Assembly (NCBI GenBank): GCA_041611735.1
Contig: JBFIML010000019.1
Location: forward strand, 1,863-65,862
DNA length: 64,000 nucleotides
Reading direction: 5' to 3'
Origin: Myxococcota bacterium
GTDB lineage: Bacteria > Myxococcota_A > UBA9160 > PR03
Below are positions 4,853-39,611 of the stretch, one piece after another. The translations under genes were made by a program, and so were the position numbers. How positions within the stretch are numbered: the stretch's first letter is position 1; each line of letters begins with the position of its first letter. The notes under the pieces were generated by a model, which saw nothing but the letters and a program-made list of their open reading frames with translations, searched no databases and was not told where the DNA came from.

Positions 4853-6184
4853 ATGCACCAGGAACGTCGCTTCGTGGAGATCAGCCCCTGGATCGAGACG
4901 CCCTCCGACCGTTGCCCGGCCTTGGAGCGGGATCTGCGCGCGGACGCGGTGGTGATCGGGGCCGGATACACGGGCCTCTCGACGGCCCTCTCGCTCCGCC
5001 AGGAGGGAGCCGACGTGGTCGTCCTGGAGCGCGACTTCGCCGGCGCCGGGGCGAGCGGACGCAACGCGGGCCATCTGACGCCCACCATCGGGAAGGACCT
5101 CCCCACGCTGCTGCGCCTGTTCGGTCGCGAGCGGGCGGCGGCGCTGGTTCGCTTCGCAGACCAGGCCGTGGAGTACACGGAGCAGGGGATCGAGAAGCAC
5201 GCGATCGATTGCGAGTACGTGCCGAACGGAAACGTCCTCGCCGCCGTCCACCCGAAGCAGGAGGCCCGCCTGCGCCGGGCGGCGGAGACGGCCGCGCAGC
5301 TGGGCGGCCGGGTGCGCTTCCTGTCCGCTCCCGAGCTTCGGGAGCGCGGTTTCCCGCGCGCCTTCCCTTGCGGCGTGCTCGAGGAACGCGGGGGGACGCT
5401 CCATCCAGGCCGCTACGTGCTCGGATTGCGGCGCGCCGCGCTGGAGGCGGGAGTGCGGCTGTTCGAGGGCACGCCGGTTCGGGAGCTCACGGAAGGCACG
5501 TCCGTGCGCGCCCGCACCCCCGGCGGCACGGTGACTGCGGACGCGGCGGTGCTCGCCACGAACGCCTATACGCCGGCCCTCGGCTGGAAGCGCCGCACGG
5601 TGGTGCCGCTTCGCGTCTCCCTGTTCGAGACGCAGCCCCTGGCCGATGAGCACCTCGCCGCGCTCGGCTGGCCGGGGCACGAGGGCATCTACACTGCCCA
5701 CGAGATCCTGGAGAGCTACCGCCTGACGGCGCGCAGGACGGTGGTCGGCGGCTCGAAGGTGGTGCGCTACGGGTGGCGAAGCGCGCTTCCAGCGGGCCCC
5801 GATCCCGCCGCGTTCCGGATCGTGGAGCGCGGCTTCCGGGAGCGCTTTCCGGAGCTCGCCGGCGTGCCGGTGGCCTGCTTCTGGGGCGGCTGGATCGCGT
5901 TCTCCCTGGACTCCCTGCCGCTCCTTGGCGCGGCGGGAACGCACCGCAACGTCTTCTACGGGATCGGCTACGCGGGCCACGGCGTGGCCCAGGCCACGCT
6001 CATGGGGGCGATGCTGGCCGACCGGGTTCGCGGCCGGGTCCACGGCTGCCAGGCGGCGCTGGCGCGTCGGGAGCACGCCTGGCCCCCCGAGCCGCTGCGG
6101 TGGCTCGGGTCGAAGCTCCTGCTGGGAGCCCTGACGGTTCTCGACGCTCGCACCGATCGCCAGGTGCGACGTCGGACTCGGTAG
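4853..6184 (+). CDS. FAD-dependent oxidoreductase (DAO/glycine-sarcosine oxidase-like family)
   Basis: Rossmann motif 'DAVVIGAGYTGLSTAL...VVVLER'; also 'ASGRNAGH' and 'GYAGHGVA'. ATG at 4853 follows 'ggagagga'. Confidence 0.85.
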   Translation: MHQERRFVEISPWIETPSDRCPALERDLRADAVVIGAGYTGLSTALSLRQEGADVVVLERDFAGAGASGRNAGHLTPTIGKDLPTLLRLFGRERAAALVRFADQAVEYTEQGIEKHAIDCEYVPNGNVLAAVHPKQEARLRRAAETAAQLGGRVRFLSAPELRERGFPRAFPCGVLEERGGTLHPGRYVLGLRRAALEAGVRLFEGTPVRELTEGTSVRARTPGGTVTADAAVLATNAYTPALGWKRRTVVPLRVSLFETQPLADEHLAALGWPGHEGIYTAHEILESYRLTARRTVVGGSKVVRYGWRSALPAGPDPAAFRIVERGFRERFPELAGVPVACFWGGWIAFSLDSLPLLGAAGTHRNVFYGIGYAGHGVAQATLMGAMLADRVRGRVHGCQAALARREHAWPPEPLRWLGSKLLLGALTVLDARTDRQVRRRTR

Positions 6185-6347
6185 GCGGCCCGGTACGGGC
6201 GGGCGTTGCGCCGGGGCGGAAGCGCGGCGTCGGAGCGGCTGGGGTAGGCTCCCACCCGGACGCCTTGGACCCGCGCGGCAGGAGGAGAGCCTGGCCCGCG
6301 AGTGCCAAGGTCGCTGGCTCGGGCTTCCACCAGGCGGGCAGCCATCC

Positions 6348-6851
6348 ATGCCCTGGAAGACGGCGCTTCGGGATCTCGGCCTCCTGCTGTTGACACTCGG
6401 CCTGTGGCGTACGGACGCGGCCCTGCGCGCCTCGGCCGGATCCGGCGCGACGCTGGTGGCGGTGGCGGCAGGCGTCCTCGCCACCGTGTGCGGCTACCTC
6501 GTCCACGAGTGGGGCCACCTGCTGGGAGCGCACGCGGGTCGGAGCCTCGTGCACCTGCCGGGCGGCTTCGCAAGTCTCTTCCTGTTCCGTTTCGACTCCG
6601 ACCGGAACACTCGCAGGCAGTTCCTCCTCATGTCCGCTGGCGGGTTCCTGGCCAGCGCGCTCGTGGTGGCGCTCTTCGTGTGTGTGCTTCCCTGGGATGC
6701 CCTCTCGGGGCGGGTGGCGCTGGTTCTCACTGGCCTCGGCGTGCTGACCACGGCGGCGCTGGAGCTGCCGCCGGCCTGGCGGGTCTGGCACGGAGCACCG
6801 ATCCCGCGCGGGGCTGCCTACGAGTCGTCCCGTCGATCCGCCACCGGCTAG
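6348..6851 (+). CDS. membrane protein with an HExxH motif (possible intramembrane metalloprotease-like protein)
   Basis: 167-aa ORF with 4-5 TMs. 'YLVHEWGHLLGAH' lies at a TM boundary. Confidence 0.55.
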   Translation: MPWKTALRDLGLLLLTLGLWRTDAALRASAGSGATLVAVAAGVLATVCGYLVHEWGHLLGAHAGRSLVHLPGGFASLFLFRFDSDRNTRRQFLLMSAGGFLASALVVALFVCVLPWDALSGRVALVLTGLGVLTTAALELPPAWRVWHGAPIPRGAAYESSRRSATG

Positions 6852-6924
6852 CAGGAGGATCGCAGGGCGCGTGATAGCCTCTGCAGGCAGGGTCCGTTGC
6901 GGAGGAGGCTTGGAGGACGAAATC

Positions 6925-7329
6925 GTGTACGTGGGCTCCGAGCCCGCCGCCCGCTCGTTGTGCGACTTCCTGCACCGGCGCGGCCTCGACGCCCGCATCC
7001 TCGACGATCCGAACGTGTTCGTGCGGATTTCCTCCCTCGGCACCTACCGGTACCGGGTCGCGGTGCCCGACACTGCGGCTCCCTCCGCCCGGGCGGCTCT
7101 CGGTGACTGGCGCGCCTTCCACGCACCGCGCGCCCGAGCCCTGGCAGGCCGCGTGCGACGACTCTTCCTGGCTTCGCTGCTTCCTCCGGCTGCCTGGTGG
7201 ATCCTGCACCAGAGCGCGCCGGAGTCCCTGCCGGCCTTCTCCCTGGAGTGGGCGCTGGCGCTCTGGGCCGCCTCCTTCGTCGTCGTGGCCCGGCTGGAGC
7301 ACCATCTCACGCCGCCGCCGGGCCCCTGA
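6925..7329 (+). CDS. hypothetical protein (small alpha/beta N-domain plus C-terminal TMs)
   Basis: The in-frame ORF is 6871..7329. GTG at 6925 lies 7 nt after 'ggagga'. The start is uncertain. Confidence 0.4.
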   Translation: MYVGSEPAARSLCDFLHRRGLDARILDDPNVFVRISSLGTYRYRVAVPDTAAPSARAALGDWRAFHAPRARALAGRVRRLFLASLLPPAAWWILHQSAPESLPAFSLEWALALWAASFVVVARLEHHLTPPPGP

Positions 7330-19770: not shown

Positions 19771-20541
19771 CTACGGCTCGCTGCGCGCTGCGCTTGCGTC
19801 GCTGCGCGCCAGCGACGGCTTGTGCCGCGGGCTGAAGAGCCAGGCGACGCCGACCCCGAGCAGGTAGAGCAGGCACATGGGCACCGCCAGGAAGATCTGG
19901 CTCACCCAGTCGGGAGGCGTCAGGATCGCACCCAGCACGAAACAGAGCAGGATTGCGTACGGAAAGCCACGCATCAGCTGGGCGGTGTCCACGATCCCCG
20001 AAACCGACAGGAAGAAGACGACCACCGGCAGCTCGAAGGCGATTCCGAAGGCCAGGAACATGCGCGTCGTGAGCGCGAAGACCTCCCGCATGGTCCAGGC
20101 GGAGGCGACGAACTCGCTCTCGAAGCGACCCAGGAAGTCGAACATCACCGGGAACACCACGAAGTAGCCGAAGGCGGCACCCGCCGTGAAAAGGGCCGTC
20201 GAGATCGCTACGAAGGGGAACGCCACGCGCTTCTCGCTGGCATAGAGGCCCGGGGAGACGAAGGCCCAGAGCTGCCAGAACACCACGGGCAGCGCCAGCA
20301 CGAAGCCGCCGAGCAGCGCTCCCTTCAGGTAGGTGAAGAAGATCTCCGTGGGCGCAATCGCCTGGAGTCTGCCCCCCTCGGCGTCGAGGGCCAGCACGGC
20401 GGGTCGCAGCAGGGCCTGGAAGATGGGTTCCCGCAGGTTCCAGGCCACGGCGAAGCCGGCCGCCACCGCCAACAGCGTCCGGAAGAGGCGGCTGCGGAGC
20501 TCCGCCAGGTGCTCGGTCAGGGGCCGCTGGCTGTCATCCAC
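19771..20541 (-). CDS. tatC: twin-arginine translocase subunit TatC
   Basis: '[19 protein letters not shown]...[36 protein letters not shown]'. Confidence 0.95.
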
Positions 20542-20851
20542 GGGGCGACTCGGCCGGCCGGGGAGGGCCCTCCTCGGGGGAGGGCACCGCGTCCGGAGGC
20601 CGGTCCGCTGCCTCCTTCAGTTGGGCGGGCCGTTCGGCGGCTGCTTCCGGCTGCGGGCTGGGCCGTTCTGCTTCCCGCTCGATCGCGTCCGCCGCGTCCT
20701 GGAGCTGGTGGCGCATCTCGGTGGATGCACGGCGGAACTCGCCCAGGGCGCGCCCGAGCGAGCGCGCGAGCTCGGGGAGGCGCTTCGGGCCGACCACGAG
20801 CAGCGCCACCCCGAGAATCACCAGGAGCTCGGTCATTCCGATGCCGAACAT
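20534..20851 (-). CDS. twin-arginine translocase TatA/TatB family subunit
   Basis: '[42 protein letters not shown]'. The Glu in TM1 and the 'GP.RLP' motif are TatB-like. It overlaps tatC by 8 nt. Confidence 0.9.
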
Positions 20852-20979: not shown

Positions 20980-20994
20980 GCAAGGCGCATGCCA
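20980..20994 (-). promoter_or_regulatory. sigma-54 (-24/-12) type promoter upstream of tatA/B-tatC
   Basis: The minus strand reads cTGGCATGCGCCTTGCt, compared with the consensus TGGCAC-N5-TTGC. It lies 129 nt upstream of the ATG at 20851. Confidence 0.6.
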
Positions 20995-21189: not shown

Positions 21190-22566
21190 TCAGACGGAAG
21201 CGGGCGGCGCGAGACCGAGCCGGTCCATCTTGAGCTTGAGAACGCGCCGCGTGACGCCCAGGCGCTGTGCCGCCAGGGTCTGGTTCCAGCCGGCTCCCTC
21301 GAGCGCATCGTGGAGGAGCGCCCGCTCGAAGCGGCTCACCGCCTGCTCGAAGGCCAGGCGGCCCGCGTTCACGGACTCGCGCAGGGACTCCAGGCGGCTG
21401 CCCTGCACCACCTCCTCCGGGAGATCCTCGACACGGATCTCCTCCGCCTCGCCCAGGGCCACGGCCCGCTCCACGGCGTTCTCGAGTTCGCGGACGTTGC
21501 CCGGCCACGAGTAGGCCTCGAGGGCGGCCATGGCCTGGGGAGCGAAACGCACCGGCCCCCGCCCGGCCGCCTCTCGCCTCCGGCCCAGGAAGTGCTCCGC
21601 CAGCAGCCGCACGTCGCCACGCCGCTCCCGCAGCGGAGCCAGCCCGATCGGCACGACCCGGATCCGGTAGTAGAGGTCGTCGCGAAAGCGGCCTTCGGCC
21701 ACCTCCCGCTCGAGGTCCCGGTTGGTGGCTGCCACCACGCGTACGTCCACGGCGATGGGCGTGTCCCCGCCGAGCCGTTGGACCCGCCGCTCCTGGAGCA
21801 CGCGCAGGAGCTTCGCCTGGACCTGCGGCGCGAGCTCTCCGATCTCGTCCAGGAAGAGCGTCCCTCCCGAGGCCGCTTCGAACCTTCCGATCCGCCGCTC
21901 CCGGGCGTCGGTGAAGGCGCCCCGCTCGTGACCGAAGAGCTCGCTCTCGATCAGGGTGTCCGGGATGGCAGCGCAGTCCACCGCCACGAAGGGGCCGTCA
22001 CGGCGCGGCCCGAGCTCGTGCAGGGCGCGCGCCACCAGCTCCTTGCCCGTCCCGCTCTCGCCGGACACGAGCACGCTGCTCGGTGACGCACACACCCGCT
22101 CCACGACCCGGAAGACGCGCTGCATCGGTTCGCTGCGGCCGAGCAGTCGCCCGAGGCGCGAGCGCCCGTCCACCTCGCTGCGCAGTCGCTCCACCTCCGC
22201 CTCGAGGGCGCGCCGCTCCAGCAAGCGCGCCACCTTGAGTCGCAGGGCTTCGATCTCGAAGGGCTTCGTCACGTAGTCGGCCGCGCCGCGCTTCATGGCC
22301 TCCACGGCCGTGGCCACGGTGCGTGTGGCGGAGAGCACGAGGACCGGCGGGGCGTCCGGGCGCTGCTCGATCTCTCCAAGCAGCTCGAGCCCGCTGCGTC
22401 CGGGCATGACGAGATCGAGGATCACGACGTCGGGCTGCGTTTCCTCCAGGATGCGCAGGGCGGGCTCCACCCCTTCGCAGGCCAGCACCTGGTGCTCGCC
22501 CTTGAAGAGCATGCGCAACGACTCCCGGACGCCGAGCTCGTCGTCCACCACCAACAGACGGGCCAT
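21190..22566 (-). CDS. sigma-54-dependent response regulator (NtrC family: REC + AAA+ + Fis-type HTH)
   Basis: 'LLVVDDE...[11 protein letters not shown]', '[17 protein letters not shown]', '[15 protein letters not shown]', '[10 protein letters not shown]', '[21 protein letters not shown]'. Confidence 0.95.
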
Positions 22567-22634
22567 GGCGCCCGGACTCTATCACGGGAGCAGGCGGGCG
22601 CCCGGCCCTTGTTCGCCAGTCTTGGACAAGGCTT

Positions 22635-24581
22635 CTACGCGACGTGGTGCGGAGCGGGAAGGTCGATCAGCACCACGATCTCGTCGCCGCGGCTCGCGTC
22701 CACGGCCATGTGTCCGCCCTGGGCGCGGACCACGGCCTCCGCCACCGGAAGCTCGAGTGCGGTCTCCTCCAAGCCGAGTCCCGGCACCGGAGCGGACTCG
22801 CCCGGAGGACGCTGGAAGCGCAGCATGACGCGCACGCTCGGCCGTCCCTCCAGGCCCCCGGCGTGGTGCTTCGAGGCGAGGTAGAGGTCGCCCCGCTCGG
22901 GCACGAACTCCACGGCCCGGTCCATGAGCGCCTCGAAGGCGAGAGCGAGCTGCTGGGGGTCGGCCCAGGCCCAAGGCTGTTCCCGGTCGAGCTCCTGGAG
23001 GACGAGCAGGCGCCGCGCCTCCACGCGGGCGCGGCGTTCCTCGAGGAGCTGCTGGAGCAGCTCGGCCACGTCGACCCGCTCCGGCTGCGGAGCCGGCAGG
23101 GCCGCAAGCCGCGTGAGGCGCTCCACGACGTCGCCGATGCGCGCGACGTCCGCGGCCGCCGCCCGGGCGAAGCGATCTCGAAACTCCGGGTCCGCGTGCC
23201 GCTCGGGCAGCAGCTCGGCCAGGGTCCGGATCGACGTGAGCGGATTCCGGATCTCGTGGGCCACCGCCCCCGCCAGGCGCCGCAGCATCGGCTCGACCGG
23301 CCGGACGCTCTCGGGCTCCACCACCCGCCCGGGCGGAGGCTCCGGCTCCGCTTCCACCGAAGCCAGCGGCTCGGACTCCTGGTCCACGGGGCCGAATGCC
23401 TCGAGCACGCTCTCGGCCTCCACCTCGGCAGTCGGCGGGCCCGGCTCGGCGACTGCCTCCGGGCGGGGGGTGCCGGGGCTGGCTCCCACCTCGAAGCGGA
23501 GCTGTCCGGCACCCAGGGGATCCCCCCGCTCCGCCGCCAAGGAGCGGACCAGGGTCTGCTCGAACTCGCGCAGGTTGCCTGGCCAGGGATGCGCGCCGAG
23601 GGCCTCGAGGGCGTCGCCGCCCAGGCGGCGCGGGCGCTCCCCGTGCGCGCGGCACCAGGCGGCCAGAACCTCCTCGGCCAGCGCGGCGATGGCTTCCCGG
23701 CGGCGGCGCAGGGGAGGCAGGCGCACCGCGAGTCCGCCCAGCGCCCGTTCGAGCTCCGGATCGAGCCAGTGTCCGGGCAGGGGCGCCTCGGGATCGCAGC
23801 ACGTCCCGATCCAGCGCAGCGGCGCCCCGGCCAGGGCCGCGGTGGGGGGCGCGATCTCGATCCACTCCCGGACCTCGCGTTGCACCTGGGGCACGAGGCG
23901 GTCGACCTCCTCGAGACACACGCTGACCCGGCCCGAGCGCCAGCCTCGCCCGGCCGCGGCCAGGCGCTCGAGAAGGACGTCGCTGCCGGTCTCGGGGCCG
24001 CAGGGAAGCGCCACGAAGCTCCCCGAGCCGGCGGTCCGGGCACCGAACCAGTGGACGTAGCGGGCCAGGAGCCCGCGTCCGGTGCCGGGCTCGCCGGCGA
24101 TCAGCACCGGCACGTCGGCGAGCCGCGGATCCACCAGGCCGAGCAGCTCGGGCATGGCCAGATCCAGGAACCAACGGGCGAAACGCGCCGCGACGGCCTC
24201 GCGCTCCCGGCGCGCGGCCAGGGAGTCGACGCGTCGGCGTCCGAGCGCGCTCGCGATCCGCTCGCGCAGGCCGTGGAGCGCCGGCGGGTAGGCGAGCGCC
24301 TCCGCCCCCAGGCCGTCGAAGAGGCGCCTTGCGTCCGGCAGGTCCGCGGGCTCCGCCACCAGGATCCACTCGGGGTCCGACGTGCGGGCGGTCAGGCGCC
24401 GCGCCAGCTCGAGCTCCGCCTCGAAGTCGCCGGCCACCCCGAGCACCACCAGCCGCGGGGGCGCGGCCTCCTCGAGGCGAGGGTCCGCCGGGCCGGCCAC
24501 GAGGCTCTCCGCGCCTCCCGCCAGCCGGGCCAGGGCGGCGCGGACGTGGGCATCGCGATGGACGATCCAGAGCTCGGCCAT
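22635..24581 (-). CDS. fusion protein: receiver-like domain + EBP-type AAA+ domain lacking GAFTGA + HisKA/HATPase-like module
   Basis: 'VLIAGEPGTGRG', 'VCLEEVDRL', 'LPPLRRRREAI', 'HPWPGNLREFE', then 'AVAHEIRNPLTSI' and '...GGHMAVDASRGDEIVVLIDLP'. The start at 24581 (MAELWIV) is preferred, with 24626 as an alternative. Confidence 0.8.
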   Translation of the reverse strand: MAELWIVHRDAHVRAALARLAGGAESLVAGPADPRLEEAAPPRLVVLGVAGDFEAELELARRLTARTSDPEWILVAEPADLPDARRLFDGLGAEALAYPPALHGLRERIASALGRRRVDSLAARREREAVAARFARWFLDLAMPELLGLVDPRLADVPVLIAGEPGTGRGLLARYVHWFGARTAGSGSFVALPCGPETGSDVLLERLAAAGRGWRSGRVSVCLEEVDRLVPQVQREVREWIEIAPPTAALAGAPLRWIGTCCDPEAPLPGHWLDPELERALGGLAVRLPPLRRRREAIAALAEEVLAAWCRAHGERPRRLGGDALEALGAHPWPGNLREFEQTLVRSLAAERGDPLGAGQLRFEVGASPGTPRPEAVAEPGPPTAEVEAESVLEAFGPVDQESEPLASVEAEPEPPPGRVVEPESVRPVEPMLRRLAGAVAHEIRNPLTSIRTLAELLPERHADPEFRDRFARAAAADVARIGDVVERLTRLAALPAPQPERVDVAELLQQLLEERRARVEARRLLVLQELDREQPWAWADPQQLALAFEALMDRAVEFVPERGDLYLASKHHAGGLEGRPSVRVMLRFQRPPGESAPVPGLGLEETALELPVAEAVVRAQGGHMAVDASRGDEIVVLIDLPAPHHVA

Positions 24582-24662
24582 GGCTCCCGCGGGCTCGAAA
24601 GAAGTGGACCCCGGTGCACGCCGCATGTCGTACGCTGCGTGCACTCCCCCACCGGCCATTGG

Positions 24663-24677
24663 GCAATCCTCATGCCA
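24663..24677 (-). promoter_or_regulatory. sigma-54 (-24/-12) type promoter upstream of the fusion-protein/activator operon
   Basis: The minus strand reads tTGGCATGAGGATTGCc. It shares the TGGCATG-N4-TTGC core with the site at 20980-20994. Confidence 0.55.
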
Positions 24678-24728
24678 AGCGCAGCGCCCCGGCAGGCGAG
24701 GCGCAGAAGCGCGGCGAAACGTCCCTCC

Positions 24729-24758
24729 CGGTGGGCGCGTCGTCGAGCGAGCCCACCG
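24729..24758. promoter_or_regulatory. inverted repeat, candidate upstream activator site
   Basis: CGGTGGGC-N14-GCCCACCG lies about 52-80 bp upstream of the -24 element at 24677. Confidence 0.25.
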
Positions 24759-24901
24759 CGCCGCCCGGGCCTCCGCGGCGCGTCCGCGCCCCCCGCGGCG
24801 CCTCATTCTAGGAAAAATTCTGCCGCCCCCCGGGACCGTTGCCCCTGCCCGGGGCGTCTGCGACATTGACTCCCATCCATCCTCCAACGGAGCCACGCGG
24901 T

Positions 24902-26434
24902 GTGCCCGTGATCGACCGCGGACCCGAAGTCCGCCTGCGCAACTGGTTCGATCGCCCCTACGACGACGCCATCGCCGCCGCCCGAACCTGCTACTCGCCT
25001 CGTGTGGTCGAGGCGGACGAGGTCACGGACCGGCAGCGGCGCAGCATCGGGCCGCTCACCTTCGACGGCGGCCACCACACCGTCTATCAGCACGCCACCT
25101 TCGAGTTCGCGCTGTCCGGGCTTTCACGCCAGGTCGTGTGGGGCTTCCTGCACGCCTTTCCGTTCTACAACACGGAGCAGCAGAGCCAGCGCTACGTGCG
25201 CCTGGACGAGGCGCGCGCCCACGTGCCGCCCGTCCTGGGCGGGCGGGCCCGGGAGCTCTACGAGCGCGCGCTCGAAAGCGCCTGGCGCGCCTATGCGGAG
25301 CTGACCGCACGGCTCCAGCCGGTCACCCACGCCATCCTGGCCGACCTGTGGCGCCTGGCCGAGCGACAGTCGAAGGCCTTCGGTCGGGGCGTGGCGCGCG
25401 AGGCCGAGAAGAAGGCCATCGAGACCGCGCGCTACGTGATCCCGATCGCCTGTCACACGGCCATGGTCTACACGGTGTCGGGAATCGTGCTGCACCGCAT
25501 GCGGCGCATGGCTGGAGTCTGCGACACCCCGGACGAGGCGCGCGACGTGGTGGACCGCATGGTCGCGGAGGTGGAGCGCGTGGACCCGGCCTTCTTCCAG
25601 GAGGTGGGTGAGACGCCGCTCGACCCGTCGGAGGTGGTGGAGCGGGAGGCGCCCTGCGGCATGGGCGACCCGGCCGCCCTCGAAGCCTTCGACAAGTCCC
25701 TGGACGGCCGCCTCTCGCGGCTGGTGGACTACGGGGCACGAGCGCCCGAGGTGGTGGCGGACGCGGTGCGTCACGTGCTCGGCCGTTCGGACCTGGACGA
25801 CGAGAGCGCCCTGGCCCTCGCTCTCGACCCGGCCCGCAACCGCTACCGGCTCGAGACCCTGAACGTCTCCACGCACGCGCCGGTCATGCGCGCGCTGGCC
25901 CACGCCCATTACACGTTTCGCAAGCGGCTCTCCCACACGGCGGACTCCCAGGATCAGCGGCATCGCATGGTTCCCGGTAGCCGTCCCCTGCTCTCGCGCA
26001 CGGTGCCGGCCACGCCGGACGTGCTGGAGCCCGACCTGATCCGCAACCAGCCGCGTGCCCACGCCCTCTTCCGCGAGGCGGTGGAGGAGGCCTGGGACGC
26101 CCGCGCGCGCCTGCTCGCCCTCGGCGTCGCGCCCGAGATCGCGCTCTACGTGCTTCCCAACGCGGTGGCCGTGCGTTTCGAGGAGTCGGGCTCGCTGCTC
26201 CACCTGCTCCACAAGTGGACCATGCGCACCTGCTTGAACGCCCAGCGCGAGATCTGGGAGGCCTCCATGGACGAGGTCGCTCAGGTGCGGGCGGTCCATC
26301 CCCAGCTCATGCGTCACGTGGGTCCGCCCTGCGTGGTCCGCAACGGCCTCGCCCGCCCGCGCTGCACCGAGGGGAGCCACTTCTGCGGCATACCGGTCTG
26401 GCGCAGCTTCCCGCAGGTCGAGCGGAGGATCTGA
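24902..26434 (+). CDS. duplicated (pseudo-dimeric) ThyX-like flavin-dependent thymidylate synthase family protein
   Basis: The N-terminal half has 'FYNTEQQSQRYV' (the S-x-RY part of the ThyX motif). The C-terminal half has 'SQDQRHRMVPGS' (the RHR part). About 510 aa versus about 220-250 for a canonical ThyX. GTG starts at 24902 or 24908. Confidence 0.75.
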   Translation: MPVIDRGPEVRLRNWFDRPYDDAIAAARTCYSPRVVEADEVTDRQRRSIGPLTFDGGHHTVYQHATFEFALSGLSRQVVWGFLHAFPFYNTEQQSQRYVRLDEARAHVPPVLGGRARELYERALESAWRAYAELTARLQPVTHAILADLWRLAERQSKAFGRGVAREAEKKAIETARYVIPIACHTAMVYTVSGIVLHRMRRMAGVCDTPDEARDVVDRMVAEVERVDPAFFQEVGETPLDPSEVVEREAPCGMGDPAALEAFDKSLDGRLSRLVDYGARAPEVVADAVRHVLGRSDLDDESALALALDPARNRYRLETLNVSTHAPVMRALAHAHYTFRKRLSHTADSQDQRHRMVPGSRPLLSRTVPATPDVLEPDLIRNQPRAHALFREAVEEAWDARARLLALGVAPEIALYVLPNAVAVRFEESGSLLHLLHKWTMRTCLNAQREIWEASMDEVAQVRAVHPQLMRHVGPPCVVRNGLARPRCTEGSHFCGIPVWRSFPQVERRI

Positions 26435-37276: not shown

Positions 37277-38482
37277 ATGTCCGAGATCGTGATCTACGCC
37301 AAGGACGGCTGCCCCTACTGCGACATGGCCAAGCGCCTGCTGGCCTCCAAGGGGCAGCGCTGGACGGAGATCGACGTGGAGACCGACGCCGCGCGCCGGC
37401 GCGAGATGGTGGAGCGCAGCGGCCAGCGCACGGTGCCGCAGATCTTCATCGGGGGGCGGCACGTGGGCGGCTTCGACGAGCTGAAAGCGCTCGAGGACTC
37501 CGGAGAGCTCGACGCGCTGCTCGGCATCGAGCGCCGCCGGCGGGACGCTCCCGGCGAGCGTGCCCGGCTCGTGATCGTCGGCGGTGGGCCAGCTGGCTAC
37601 ACGGCGGCCCTGTACGCCGCACGGGCCGAGCTCGCCCCCGTGGTCGTGGCGGGTCTGCAGGCCGGCGGACAGCTCATGCTGACCACCGACGTGGAGAACT
37701 ACCCGGGCTTCCCGGAAGCCGTGACCGGGCCCGAGCTGATGGAGCGCTTCCAGAAGCAGGCCGAGCGTTTCGGAGCCCGGGTCCTGCTCGAGGACGCCAC
37801 GAAGATCGATCTCTCCGCACGTCCATTTCGGGTGGAGACGGAGGGGCGCATGCTGGCCGCCGAGGCCCTGATCCTGGCCACGGGGGCGTCCGCGAAGTGG
37901 CTCGGGCTCCCTTCCGAGCAGCGGCTGCAGAACCGGGGCGTCTCCGCCTGCGCCACCTGCGACGGCGCCCTCTACCGCGGCAAGCCCATGGCCGTGGTCG
38001 GAGGCGGGGACACCGCGATGGAGGAGGCGCTCTTCCTGACCCGCTATGCCACCCGGGTCACCGTGATCCACCGGCGGCGCGAGCTGCGCGCATCGCGCAT
38101 CATGCAGGAGCGGGCCCTCGGCAACCCGAAGATCGAGTTCGTCTGGGACGCGGAGGTGGACGAGGTGCTGGGCGACGAGTTCGTGACCGGGGTGCGGGTG
38201 CGCGACGTAACCACCGGGGAGAAGCGGGAGCTTGCGGTGGAAGCGCTGTTCATCGCGATCGGGCACGAGCCCAACACGAGTCTCGTTGCGGGCCAGCTCG
38301 AGCTCGATCCGGTCGGGTACGTGAAGGCCGAGCCGGGCAGCACGCGCACCTCCGTGGAAGGGGTGTTCGCCTGCGGCGACGCCATCGACCCGACCTACCG
38401 CCAGGCGGTGACCGCCGCCGGGACCGGTTGCATGGCGGCCATCGACGCGGAACGCTGGCTGGCGGCCCAGGGCATCGAGTGA
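37277..38482 (+). CDS. trxB: glutaredoxin (GrxC-type) fused to low-Mr NADPH thioredoxin reductase
   Basis: N-terminus: 'IVIYAKDGCPYCDMAKRLL...TVPQIFIGGRHVGGFDEL'. Then 'VIVGGGPAGYTAALYAAR', redox 'CATCDG', 'VVGGGDTAMEEA', 'HRRRELRAS' and 'GVFACGD'. It is a single uninterrupted ORF. Confidence 0.9.
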   Translation: MSEIVIYAKDGCPYCDMAKRLLASKGQRWTEIDVETDAARRREMVERSGQRTVPQIFIGGRHVGGFDELKALEDSGELDALLGIERRRRDAPGERARLVIVGGGPAGYTAALYAARAELAPVVVAGLQAGGQLMLTTDVENYPGFPEAVTGPELMERFQKQAERFGARVLLEDATKIDLSARPFRVETEGRMLAAEALILATGASAKWLGLPSEQRLQNRGVSACATCDGALYRGKPMAVVGGGDTAMEEALFLTRYATRVTVIHRRRELRASRIMQERALGNPKIEFVWDAEVDEVLGDEFVTGVRVRDVTTGEKRELAVEALFIAIGHEPNTSLVAGQLELDPVGYVKAEPGSTRTSVEGVFACGDAIDPTYRQAVTAAGTGCMAAIDAERWLAAQGIE

Positions 38483-38522
38483 CGGCAGGCGGGACTGCTG
38501 GGGAGGCGCCGCTCTCGTTGCC

Positions 38523-39611
38523 ATGGCGCTGACGAAGGAGCGTCTCGAACGGCTCATCGCCCAGTCCACGGACATCGTGGTGGCCACGGACCGCAAGGGC
38601 ATCGTCGTCTACTACAACGATGGCGCCCGCAAGATCCTCGGCTACCAGTCACGCGAGATCCTGGGCCGTTTCGTCGGTCAGCTCTACCCGGAGCTGGCGG
38701 AGGCGAAACGGGTGATGGCCGCCATGCGCGACCCGGGGCACGGCGGGGCGGGCATCTGCGAGACCTTCCAGACCGCCTTCCTCTCCAAGACGGGCGAGCG
38801 GATCCCGGTGGCCATCTCCGGCACCTTGCTCTACGACGAGGCCGGCCGCGAGGACGGCACGATCGGCTTCGCCAAGGATCTGCGCGAGATCCTGCGCAAG
38901 GATCAGCTCGCCACCCTGGGCGAGATCGCCGTGGGTCTCTCCCACGAGATCAACAACCCGCTGGCGGTGATCGTGAACCAGGCCGAGCTGCTGGAACGCG
39001 ACTTGCAGCGGCTGGCCGGGGAGGCGGATGCCTCGGTCGAATTCGAGCGCCTCGATGCGGTCCGTCGCGAGGTGGCACGCATCGCGGAGATCCTCGAGCG
39101 CCTGGGACAGCTGGTTCGCGACGAACGCTACGAGACGGTGGAGTACATCGGTCCGGCCAAGATGATCGACCTGCGGCGCCGGGAGCGGGCGCGGCCTCCC
39201 GATCTGCGCATGAAGGGCCTGCGCATCCTGCTGGTAGACGACGACATGGGGATCTGCAGCACGCTCTCCGAGATGCTCGAGGCGGAAGGCTGCGTGGTGG
39301 AGACCGCCTCGGACGGAGAAGAGGCGCTACGTCGCCTGGAGACCCGGCCCGTGGACGTGGTGCTCACCGACGTGGTCATGCCCAACATGGACGGGCACGA
39401 GCTGTTCGTGAACCTGCGCAAGCGCCACCCGACCCTCCCGGTGCTGATGATGACGGCTTTCCACTACGACAAGGACCACATCATCAAGCGCAGCCGCCTG
39501 GAGGGGCTGGAGGGCGTCATCTTCAAGAAGCCGGTCGATCCGGAGCGCCTGCGGCAGGTGCTGCTGGAGGTGACGGGGCGGGCCGGCGCGCCGGATGCCT
39601 CGCGCCCCTAG
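38523..39611 (+). CDS. PAS + HisKA + REC protein with no HATPase_c domain
   Basis: PAS 'DIVVATDRKGIVVYYNDGARKILGY'; H-box 'GLSHEINNPLAVI'; only about 30 aa before REC 'ILLVDDDMG...VVLTDVVMPNMDG...KKP'. Confidence 0.85.
   Translation: MALTKERLERLIAQSTDIVVATDRKGIVVYYNDGARKILGYQSREILGRFVGQLYPELAEAKRVMAAMRDPGHGGAGICETFQTAFLSKTGERIPVAISGTLLYDEAGREDGTIGFAKDLREILRKDQLATLGEIAVGLSHEINNPLAVIVNQAELLERDLQRLAGEADASVEFERLDAVRREVARIAEILERLGQLVRDERYETVEYIGPAKMIDLRRRERARPPDLRMKGLRILLVDDDMGICSTLSEMLEAEGCVVETASDGEEALRRLETRPVDVVLTDVVMPNMDGHELFVNLRKRHPTLPVLMMTAFHYDKDHIIKRSRLEGLEGVIFKKPVDPERLRQVLLEVTGRAGAPDASRP

Follow-up and report, generated by a model that had tools for sequence, protein, structure and literature searches.

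A sigma-54 activator mimic fused to a histidine kinase core without canonical ATP-binding motifs in uncultured Myxococcota

The fusion gene and its product

A 64,000-nucleotide stretch of DNA from an uncultured Myxococcota bacterium (GenBank assembly GCA_041611735.1, contig JBFIML010000019.1, positions 1,863 to 65,862; the window, with a G+C content of about 72%) carries a gene whose single product joins parts of three different signalling enzymes. From the N terminus to the C terminus this fusion protein consists of a pseudo-receiver, a degenerate sigma-54-type AAA+ module with its lid, a disordered linker rich in acidic residues and proline, a HisKA dimerization and histidine phosphotransfer (DHp) domain with an intact H-box, and a domain with the fold of the catalytic (CA) domain of histidine kinases (Table 1). 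The partner gene, which starts 68 nt downstream, encodes a canonical sigma-54 activator by Pfam and by alignment, as the original prediction, made from the sequence alone, had stated.

Table 1. Features of the fusion locus, in coordinates of the window
Feature	Position	Strand	Basis or remark
Fusion gene (pseudo-receiver / pseudo-AAA+ / DHp / pseudo-CA)	22635-24581	-	648 aa; stop codon counted in
Pseudo-receiver, residues 1-115	24237-24581	-	Collinear with partner receiver; AlphaFold2; Foldseek
Linker helix between receiver and AAA+, residues 116-150	24132-24236	-	Alignment, model, conservation
Degenerate sigma-54-type AAA+ alpha/beta core, residues 151-290	23712-24131	-	Alignment, conservation
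AAA+ lid, residues 291-362	23496-23711	-	PF25601; NtrC1 alignment 277-362; conservation
Acidic, Pro-rich disordered linker, residues 363-428	23298-23495	-	pLDDT, entropy, composition
DHp (HisKA) domain, residues 429-495	23097-23297	-	PF00512; PDB alignments
CA-fold domain without ATP-binding motifs, residues 496-648	22638-23096	-	Alignments to QseC, ZraS, WalK; Foldseek
Partner gene, canonical receiver - Sigma54_activat - lid - HTH_8 activator	21190-22566	-	Pfam, NCBIfam, alignment
P1, sigma-54-type promoter TTGGCATGAGGATTGCC	24663-24677	-	3' end 81 nt upstream of ATG
P2, sigma-54-type promoter TGGCATGCGCCTTGC	20980-20994	-	Ahead of tatA
GTTCC-N4-GGAAC palindrome 5' of P2	21165-21178	-	Perfect
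GTTCC-N4-GGAAC palindrome 5' of P2	21096-21109	-	One mismatch
tatA/B	20534-20848	-	Pfam TatA_B_E, synteny
tatC	19771-20541	-	Pfam TatC, synteny

The minus-strand reading frame runs uninterrupted from ATG 24581 to the stop codon at 22635-22637, giving a product of 648 aa. The frame can be read from as far upstream as GTG 24896, and a database protein that is 100% identical to the fusion (P0001) was given 674 aa by the gene caller, by way of an earlier ATG. The start is placed at ATG 24581 because the family alignment begins there, a GGGAG Shine-Dalgarno sequence lies just 5' of it and the position of the promoter P1 agrees with it; the 674-aa start was rejected since its ATG lies upstream of the predicted transcription start. 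Two further long reading frames overlap the gene, one of 741 aa at 22644-24869 on the plus strand and one of 694 aa at 22582-24666 on the minus strand. Such frames on the other strand or in another frame are most likely shadows of the high G+C content and not genes.

Only two Pfam families match the fusion, AAA_lid_14 (PF25601; residues 292-368, E 2e-11, 43.9 bits) and HisKA (PF00512; residues 433-494, E 5e-11). Sigma54_activat (PF00158) falls just short, at 19.6 bits against a cut-off of 20.2, Sigma54_activ_2 is likewise below threshold, and the Pfam scan finds no Response_reg (PF00072), HATPase_c, HTH_8 or PAS. The NCBIfam models give nothing but partial, far sub-threshold matches to activator and kinase equivalogs. 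Sequence searches of the PDB align residues 57-194 and 277-362 with NtrC1 and residues 433-633 with ZraS, QseC and DivL. The full-length AlphaFold2 model has a mean predicted local distance difference test score (pLDDT) of 84.1, with every domain confident and residues 366-426 disordered (pLDDT below 50). Individual residues were checked against the partner activator for the N-terminal half and against QseC, ZraS and WalK for the C-terminal half.

The N-terminal half: an activator mimic

Residues 1-349 are collinear with residues 1-370 of the partner (28% identity, E 7e-19). The receiver-like fold without an acceptor Asp that had been read from the sequence is borne out: the AlphaFold2 model has a (beta-alpha)5 fold of five strand/helix pairs at residues 4-114, and the position of the acceptor, D54 in the partner, is G48. 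The acidic pair DD is replaced by H8 and R9, the conserved T by E and the conserved K by Y/P. Of the 237 family members aligned at the acceptor position, 208 share the Gly of G48 and one has Asp. The linker helix that follows, nearly as long as that of the partner, contains two positions, L121 and R124, that are at least 95% conserved.

The AAA+ module lacks catalytic residues and the sigma-54 contact loop. Walker A reads GEPGTGR(G) where the partner has GESGTGKE, so that R169 (codon 24075-24077) takes the place of the Lys, as originally read, and the alignment places no intact Lys. The Walker B pair DE has become EE (E224-E225, in CLEEVD), both Arg fingers are lost (FRDDLYYRI to LDPELERAL) and so is the sensor-I Asn (AATNRD to GTCCD). 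The sigma-54 contact segment was described as replaced by a shorter stretch; more exactly, a deletion of 11 residues relative to the partner takes out the GAFTGA hairpin, with nothing similar in its place. The lid retains the PPLRxR and WPGNLRE motifs, including the sensor-II R338, and few positions in the family are as well conserved as G163, E164, G166 and R169 of the P-loop.

Foldseek matches the N-terminal half to receiver-AAA+ structures of NtrX, off-state NtrC1 and NtrC4, VpsR and FleQ, over about 400 columns, and of LuxO. An origin of this half as a duplicate of the adjacent activator is unsupported, since it scores 61 bits against the partner and 57-74 bits against unrelated activators. 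The residues with which FleQ binds cyclic di-GMP were also compared by eye; the candidate Arg is present in the ordinary partner as well, so the comparison does not discriminate.

The C-terminal half: a kinase core

The linker between the two halves stands where true activators have their HTH_8 DNA-binding domain. It was predicted to be acidic and Pro-rich, and of its 66 residues 14 are Glu and another 14 Pro; it is disordered in the model and has the highest column entropy in the family. The H-box of the DHp domain, AHEIRNPL, is intact, with H442 (codon 23256-23258) followed by E443 and N446, as the original reading of an unbroken HisKA motif requires. Its best matches among the PDB sequence alignments are ZraS, QseC and WalK, and we take it to be of the NtrB/ZraS/AtoS type.

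The CA-fold domain is different. HMMER alignments to QseC, ZraS and WalK place R555 at the Mg-binding Asn of the N-box, and register and spacing place R588 at the G1 Asp, with R584 also invariant. The claim that the N-box Asn and the G1 box are missing thus stands, in agreement with the missing HATPase_c match. The claim of a surviving G2 remnant in PGLGLEE does not: that segment lies five residues out of register and is unconserved (the family consensus is GxSxAE), and the WalK alignment and the spacing to the GG motif place ETALEL (606-611) at the GxGLGL position. From its motifs, the CA domain looks unable to bind ATP.

A separate model of the C-terminal half nevertheless has an ordinary DHp+CA fold (pLDDT 89.6, predicted template modelling score 0.84). 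Its Foldseek matches include HK853, WalK and ZraS (template modelling scores 0.56-0.70) as well as DivL and RetS (scores up to 0.70), and those of the C-terminal half of the full-length model include DivL, ZraS, RetS and HK853. Neither ChpT nor Spo0B appears in the top 50 that Foldseek gives for the C-terminal model in the PDB, or among the PDB sequence matches. As modelled, the fusion protein keeps its folds and has lost the chemistry alone. Because the catalytic residues of all three parent families are missing while the folds are kept, the protein is best regarded as a member of none of them.

A family with invariant substitutions

A database clustered at 90% identity gave 282 matches to the fusion. 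The best 120 of these, all from Myxococcota metagenome-assembled genomes or metagenomes, are 621-696 aa long, match the query at 43-58% identity and nearly all do so end to end; none of these 120 has a precomputed HATPase_c or Response_reg match. A profile search of 1.84 billion representative sequences gave at least 416 clusters (at 50% identity) with E<=1e-30. More than 200 independent full-length reading frames, of about 560-890 aa, were collected, and among the species representatives of GTDB at least six genomes have full-length members, those six all being uncultured Myxococcota.

Residues were counted in 259 family sequences, the denominators being the members aligned at each position. 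At the Walker-A position, 235 of 244 members have Arg and six have Lys; the G1 position is Arg (R588) in 236/239, and R584 is kept in 232/239. Just one member of the 259 has the N-box Asn. Besides the positions already mentioned, conservation of at least 95% is seen at W5, P31, L57, L277, P289, W333, E339 and E341 in the N-terminal half (with L121, R124, G163, E164, G166 and R169), and at V527, L528, E530, G623 and L641 in the C-terminal half (with R584 and R588). The folded domains are similarly constrained, and free variation is confined to the acidic linker. The description of the modules as eroded is therefore right in that the catalytic residues are lost, and wrong if random erosion is meant: the replacements are near-invariant across the family, which argues against random erosion or decay.

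Apparent fusions of AAA+ and HisKA modules in other phyla (L007-L066; Acidobacteriota, Planctomycetota, Elusimicrobia and others) proved to be separate, ordinary kinase and activator genes. Neither Pfam nor NCBIfam has a named family with the architecture of the fusion, and literature searches aimed at it found no description, in keeping with the original failure to assign it to a named family. Each of the dead modules is known singly, as in the pseudo-kinases NifL, RetS, DivL and PhyT, the GAFTGA-less NtrX, VpsR and TyrR, and various pseudo-receivers. What appears to be new, in that no description was found, is a kinase core with an activator mimic as its N-terminal module.

The H-box histidine and the adjacent activator

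The H-box His is kept in 183 of the 217 full-length members and lost in 34. The His-less members are scattered across many sublineages among His-bearing relatives, which implies repeated independent loss. Gene neighbourhoods were examined at 18 loci, 11 with a His-bearing and seven with a His-less member. A full activator gene is present beside all 11 His-bearing members and missing beside six of the seven His-less ones, five of which have none and one a receiver remnant (table [[11,0],[1,6]]; one-sided Fisher probability 7/18564, about 3.8e-4, calculated by hand). In four of the five activator-less, His-less loci a tatA gene or a gene for a receiver-HD (REC-HD) protein follows the fusion gene at 19-75 nt; the distance is about 420 nt in the fifth (L088). 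The remnant, in locus L091 (5741-6133, between the fusion gene and tatA), is an activator shrunk to a lone 130-aa receiver, 52% identical to the activator receiver.

Relaxation in the His-less members is confined to the DHp domain. The match of this domain to its consensus in His-less members is 0.67 of that in divergence-matched His-bearing members, and for the pseudo-receiver, linker, AAA+, lid and CA-like domains the same comparison gives 0.92-1.04. The Walker-A Arg and R588 are retained in all of the His-less proteins.

That the His is kept with the activator and mostly lost without it points to a real His-dependent chemistry with the activator receiver. Equally, the conservation of the AAA+ and CA modules in the absence of both His and activator implies an additional function that is independent of the activator. 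The original prediction asked whether the fusion always accompanies a canonical activator; five of the 18 sampled loci have none and a sixth has only a receiver remnant, so it does not. The prediction also proposed that the fusion modulates the adjacent activator and is not an enzyme. A non-enzymatic role of the AAA+ and CA modules agrees with the data, but modulation of the adjacent activator cannot be the whole function, given the six loci without a full activator, and mere scaffolding or poisoning of the ring does not account for a His that tracks the activator.

The partner activator, promoters and neighbouring genes

A canonical activator gene lies directly 3' of the fusion gene in 12 of the 18 loci. 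The partner in the window scores best against the AtoC, NtrC and ZraR models of NCBIfam and, besides its intact Walker A, D54 and Walker B DE, has both Arg fingers. Its receiver site (DD, D54, S/T and K) is intact in all nine loci aligned. Near residue 220 it reads GAFTDA in place of the consensus GAFTGA, as do 7/9 aligned orthologues; those of L004 and L005 have GAFTGA. Between loci the partner is 59-72% identical, the fusion proteins only 38-48%.

The conserved cluster contains no canonical kinase gene. The fusion gene sits in the kinase slot of a kinase-then-activator operon; of 11 ordinary loci inspected in other phyla, ten likewise have the kinase gene first and the activator gene second. 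Locus L005 has a 2-kb insertion (5453-7280) between the fusion gene and the activator; a hidden kinase there was rejected, since the translations of its two large reading frames, read by eye, show no H-, N- or G-box. By eye these resemble a DHH-family protein and a glutathione S-transferase. In the L005 lineage the G+C content is lower, and the sensor-II Arg is missing from the fusion protein (WPGNMAQLK). Elsewhere in the window, at 38412-39611 on the plus strand, a 399-aa PAS-HisKA-receiver protein has no HATPase_c domain, making it a second kinase-like protein that lacks an ATP-binding domain.

Promoters were sought with the pattern TGGCAC-N5-TTGC, allowing at most one mismatch. P1, ahead of the fusion gene, is one of only three such matches in the 64 kb. 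Each of the 16 loci that have DNA on that side, those without an activator included, has an equivalent 42-155 nt 5' of the fusion gene. P2 lies between the activator gene and tatA and is preceded by two GTTCC-N4-GGAAC palindromes, one of them the sole perfect copy in the window. Wherever an activator-bearing locus has sequence 3' of the activator gene, P2 stands there with one or two palindromes; both P2 and palindromes are absent from the activator-less loci. The position ahead of tatA-tatC suggests that these Tat export genes may be under sigma-54 and enhancer control in this uncultured Myxococcota clade. A P2-type promoter also precedes genes for REC-HD(GYP) and PilZ proteins in relatives.

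Autoregulation of P1 by the adjacent activator was considered and rejected, as there is no GTTCC-N4-GGAAC element 5' of P1 and P1 persists in the activator-less loci. For the latter reason some unlinked activator must serve P1. A crude k-mer search found no enhancer shared among the P1 regions. In most loci a short CTGCCGG-like element recurs about 15-40 nt 5' of the P1 -24 box (about 24690-24715, minus strand, in the window).

The surroundings are otherwise conserved. The fusion gene is upstream of tatA-tatC in every locus examined, and in every one it is divergent from a block with a GNAT acetyltransferase and an aminotransferase gene, which in nearly all loci also holds a double-length Thy1 (ThyX-like) gene adjoining the fusion gene. 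In the window this gene (24839-26434, plus strand) encodes 531 aa with two Thy1 stretches, presumably about twice the usual length. Some loci have genes for REC-HD(GYP) and PilZ proteins after the activator; the window has neither.

Discussion

A conserved activator receiver site in nine of nine loci implies a receiver that is meant to be phosphorylated, and with a CA pocket that is dead in every member of the family the simplest reading of the neighbouring fusion is a phosphatase or phosphotransferase that has ceased to be a kinase. We put at about an even chance the possibility that the fusion is a kinase-dead descendant of the sensor kinase of the adjacent activator, whose His acts on that activator in a phosphatase or phosphotransferase reaction. 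The DHp helix (H442-E-x-x-N446) would dock onto the canonical receiver of the activator and exchange phosphate with it, either as a dedicated phosphatase or as a histidine phosphotransferase in the manner of Spo0B, ChpT or PhyT, with a putative unlinked donor. With the Mg-binding Asn, the adenine-binding Asp and the glycine lid all missing from the CA pocket, the fusion would be unable to use ATP for autophosphorylation; the vacated positions are taken by conserved Arg and Glu residues. The activator look-alike would sit where kinases normally carry a sensor domain, and would be neither phosphorylated nor able to hydrolyse ATP or touch sigma-54. Its invariant P-loop makes continued binding of a nucleotide or some other phosphate ligand probable, and it may be a regulatory or scaffolding module. 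A second role, exerted by the pseudo-receiver, pseudo-AAA+ and pseudo-CA independently of the activator, could be feedback on whichever activator fires P1. The anatomy, the conservation of the replacements throughout the family, the synteny, the association of His with activator and the relaxation specific to the DHp domain are observed; we infer, on this scheme, the direction of phosphate flow, the ligand and any contact between AAA+ modules.

Several points weigh against this assignment. One His-less member (P0141, in locus L089) still has an adjacent activator, and the association of His with activator comes from 18 loci whose sublineages are not fully independent. The predicted loss of ATP binding is read from motifs, and the phosphate donor is putative. 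The phosphatase activity of HisKA proteins often tolerates loss of the His, so the link between His and activator fits phosphotransfer or a true kinase better than it fits a pure phosphatase. Finally, retention of the fusion where there is no activator means that the proposed role cannot be the only one.

Parallels for a kinase relative that handles phosphate without ATP exist. PhyT, which has a degenerate catalytic domain and is encoded at the locus of its regulator, transfers phosphate through its His (PMC5898713). Like the fusion, PhyT (formerly PhyP, of Sphingomonas melonis), ChpT and Spo0B are kinase-derived, with a DHp His and a degenerate ATP site in a CA-like domain. Unlike the fusion, none of the three has an activator mimic, and PhyT is membrane-anchored with a periplasmic sensor. 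The fusion is structurally nearest to ordinary HisKA kinases and not to ChpT or Spo0B, and phosphotransfer by it would be by analogy with them. With ZraS/ZraR, AtoS/AtoC and NtrB/NtrC the fusion locus has in common the type of H-box, the order of kinase before activator and a predicted sigma-54-driven operon. It departs from ZraS, AtoS and NtrB in having neither an ATP-binding CA domain nor a conventional sensor domain.

A different kind of parallel is offered by kinase relatives that work through contact. The nifL gene lies just upstream of nifA, and the gene order and dead motifs of the fusion would fit that pattern. DivL and RetS, top structural matches of the C-terminal half, act through protein-protein contact and not through ordinary autophosphorylation. 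However, DivL has Tyr in place of the His but keeps its CA domain, the target of RetS is the kinase GacS, and neither has AAA+ modules. NifL is a kinase homologue without kinase activity, which binds ADP and whose DH and GHKL domains contact the AAA+ domain of the sigma-54 activator NifA in a 2:2 complex (PMC12998190). It keeps ADP binding and PAS sensors and its partner has no receiver, whereas the fusion lacks the nucleotide-binding motifs, starts with an activator mimic and is paired with an activator whose receiver is canonical. As for the N-terminal half, NtrX, VpsR, TyrR and the NtrC of Rhodobacter likewise have a sigma-54-type AAA+ module without a functional sigma-54 contact loop, and NtrX and VpsR are among its top structural matches. 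VpsR is reported to lack residues needed for sigma-54 work (PMC6158489). These four keep their DNA-binding domain and act as transcription factors; in the fusion the helix-turn-helix is replaced by the linker and kinase core, and the Walker-A Lys and Arg fingers are gone too.

The resemblance to NifL raises the possibility that the fusion is a stoichiometric anti-activator, in which the DHp and CA-like domains would clamp the AAA+ module of an activator, either the adjacent one or an unlinked one driving P1, and keep it out of the hexamer without any phosphate. The shared gene order, conservation of the CA-like domain in His-less members and the high structural ranking of two non-canonical kinases, DivL and RetS, would all fit such a clamp. 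We consider it unlikely, because the partner receiver is phosphorylatable and fully conserved, unlike anything in NifA, because a phosphate-free clamp does not predict a His that is kept or lost with the activator, and because the GHKL domain of NifL needs ADP, for which the fusion has lost the nucleotide-binding motifs. To the same unlikely class belongs a hetero-oligomerizing poison or decoy, whereby the pseudo-AAA+ with its pseudo-receiver and linker would co-assemble with the partner and damp activation, as an off-state dimer or as a ring containing a subunit without Arg finger or GAFTGA loop. Collinearity of the N-terminal 350 residues with the partner, with a linker of nearly equal length, speaks for this, as do the Foldseek matches to the off-state receiver-AAA+ dimers of NtrC1, NtrC4 and NtrX and the precedent of mixed activator assemblies such as HrpR/HrpS and FleQ/FleT; yet by the bit scores given above the mimic resembles its partner no more than it does unrelated activators, and it is equally conserved in genomes without an adjacent activator. 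A slightly less probable arrangement still is a phosphate-independent, self-contained device in which the pseudo-CA docks on its own pseudo-AAA+ and is swapped onto the AAA+ modules of real activators, controlling sigma-54 promoters. The fusion would then be a NifL-NifA-like pair in one chain; the promoters controlled may be that of its own gene and that of tatA-tatC, and the invariant GxxGxGR P-loop and Arg-lined CA pocket may be sensors of a nucleotide or second messenger, with cyclic di-GMP as a candidate because genes for HD-GYP and PilZ proteins share the regulon in many relatives.

The remaining explanations bear on the catalytic state itself. That the fusion is a true autokinase, phosphorylating H442 through a non-canonical site (the Arg-lined CA pocket or the AAA+ P-loop) and passing the phosphate to the activator, has very little probability in our view. 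A true cognate kinase would be expected to give the association of His with activator, there is no other kinase gene in the cluster, and the invariant P-loop and pocket Arg residues make it probable that some ligand is bound. Nonetheless, all three canonical GHKL ATP-binding elements are replaced, and the equal conservation of the CA-like domain and P-loop in members without the His means that their conserved role is not phosphorylation of the His. Decay into a pseudogene, or the joining of two genes through an error of assembly or annotation, is effectively refuted. Three degenerate catalytic sites and a rate of change above that of the neighbours (38-48% against 59-78% identity) might have suggested it, but more than 200 full-length reading frames and at least 416 clusters, invariant replacements, similarly constrained folded domains and confident AlphaFold2 models are not what decay would leave. 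The reading of a kinase-dead phosphatase or phosphotransferase with a second, activator-independent role accordingly stays the one that we prefer.

To our knowledge bacterial pseudo-enzyme regulators are few and usually have one dead domain, whereas here three different signalling enzymes are dead in one polypeptide. The 'dead' residues are invariant across hundreds of lineages, a sign that each pocket has been positively selected for a new function. Loss of the activator, followed by loss of the His and relaxation of the DHp domain only, amounts to a natural experiment that splits a phosphate-dependent from a phosphate-independent role. The protein is, moreover, a kinase core whose 'sensor' mimics its own class of substrate. 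Should the P-loop or the Arg-lined pocket bind a messenger, that would put the AAA+ or the GHKL fold to a new use in ligand binding.

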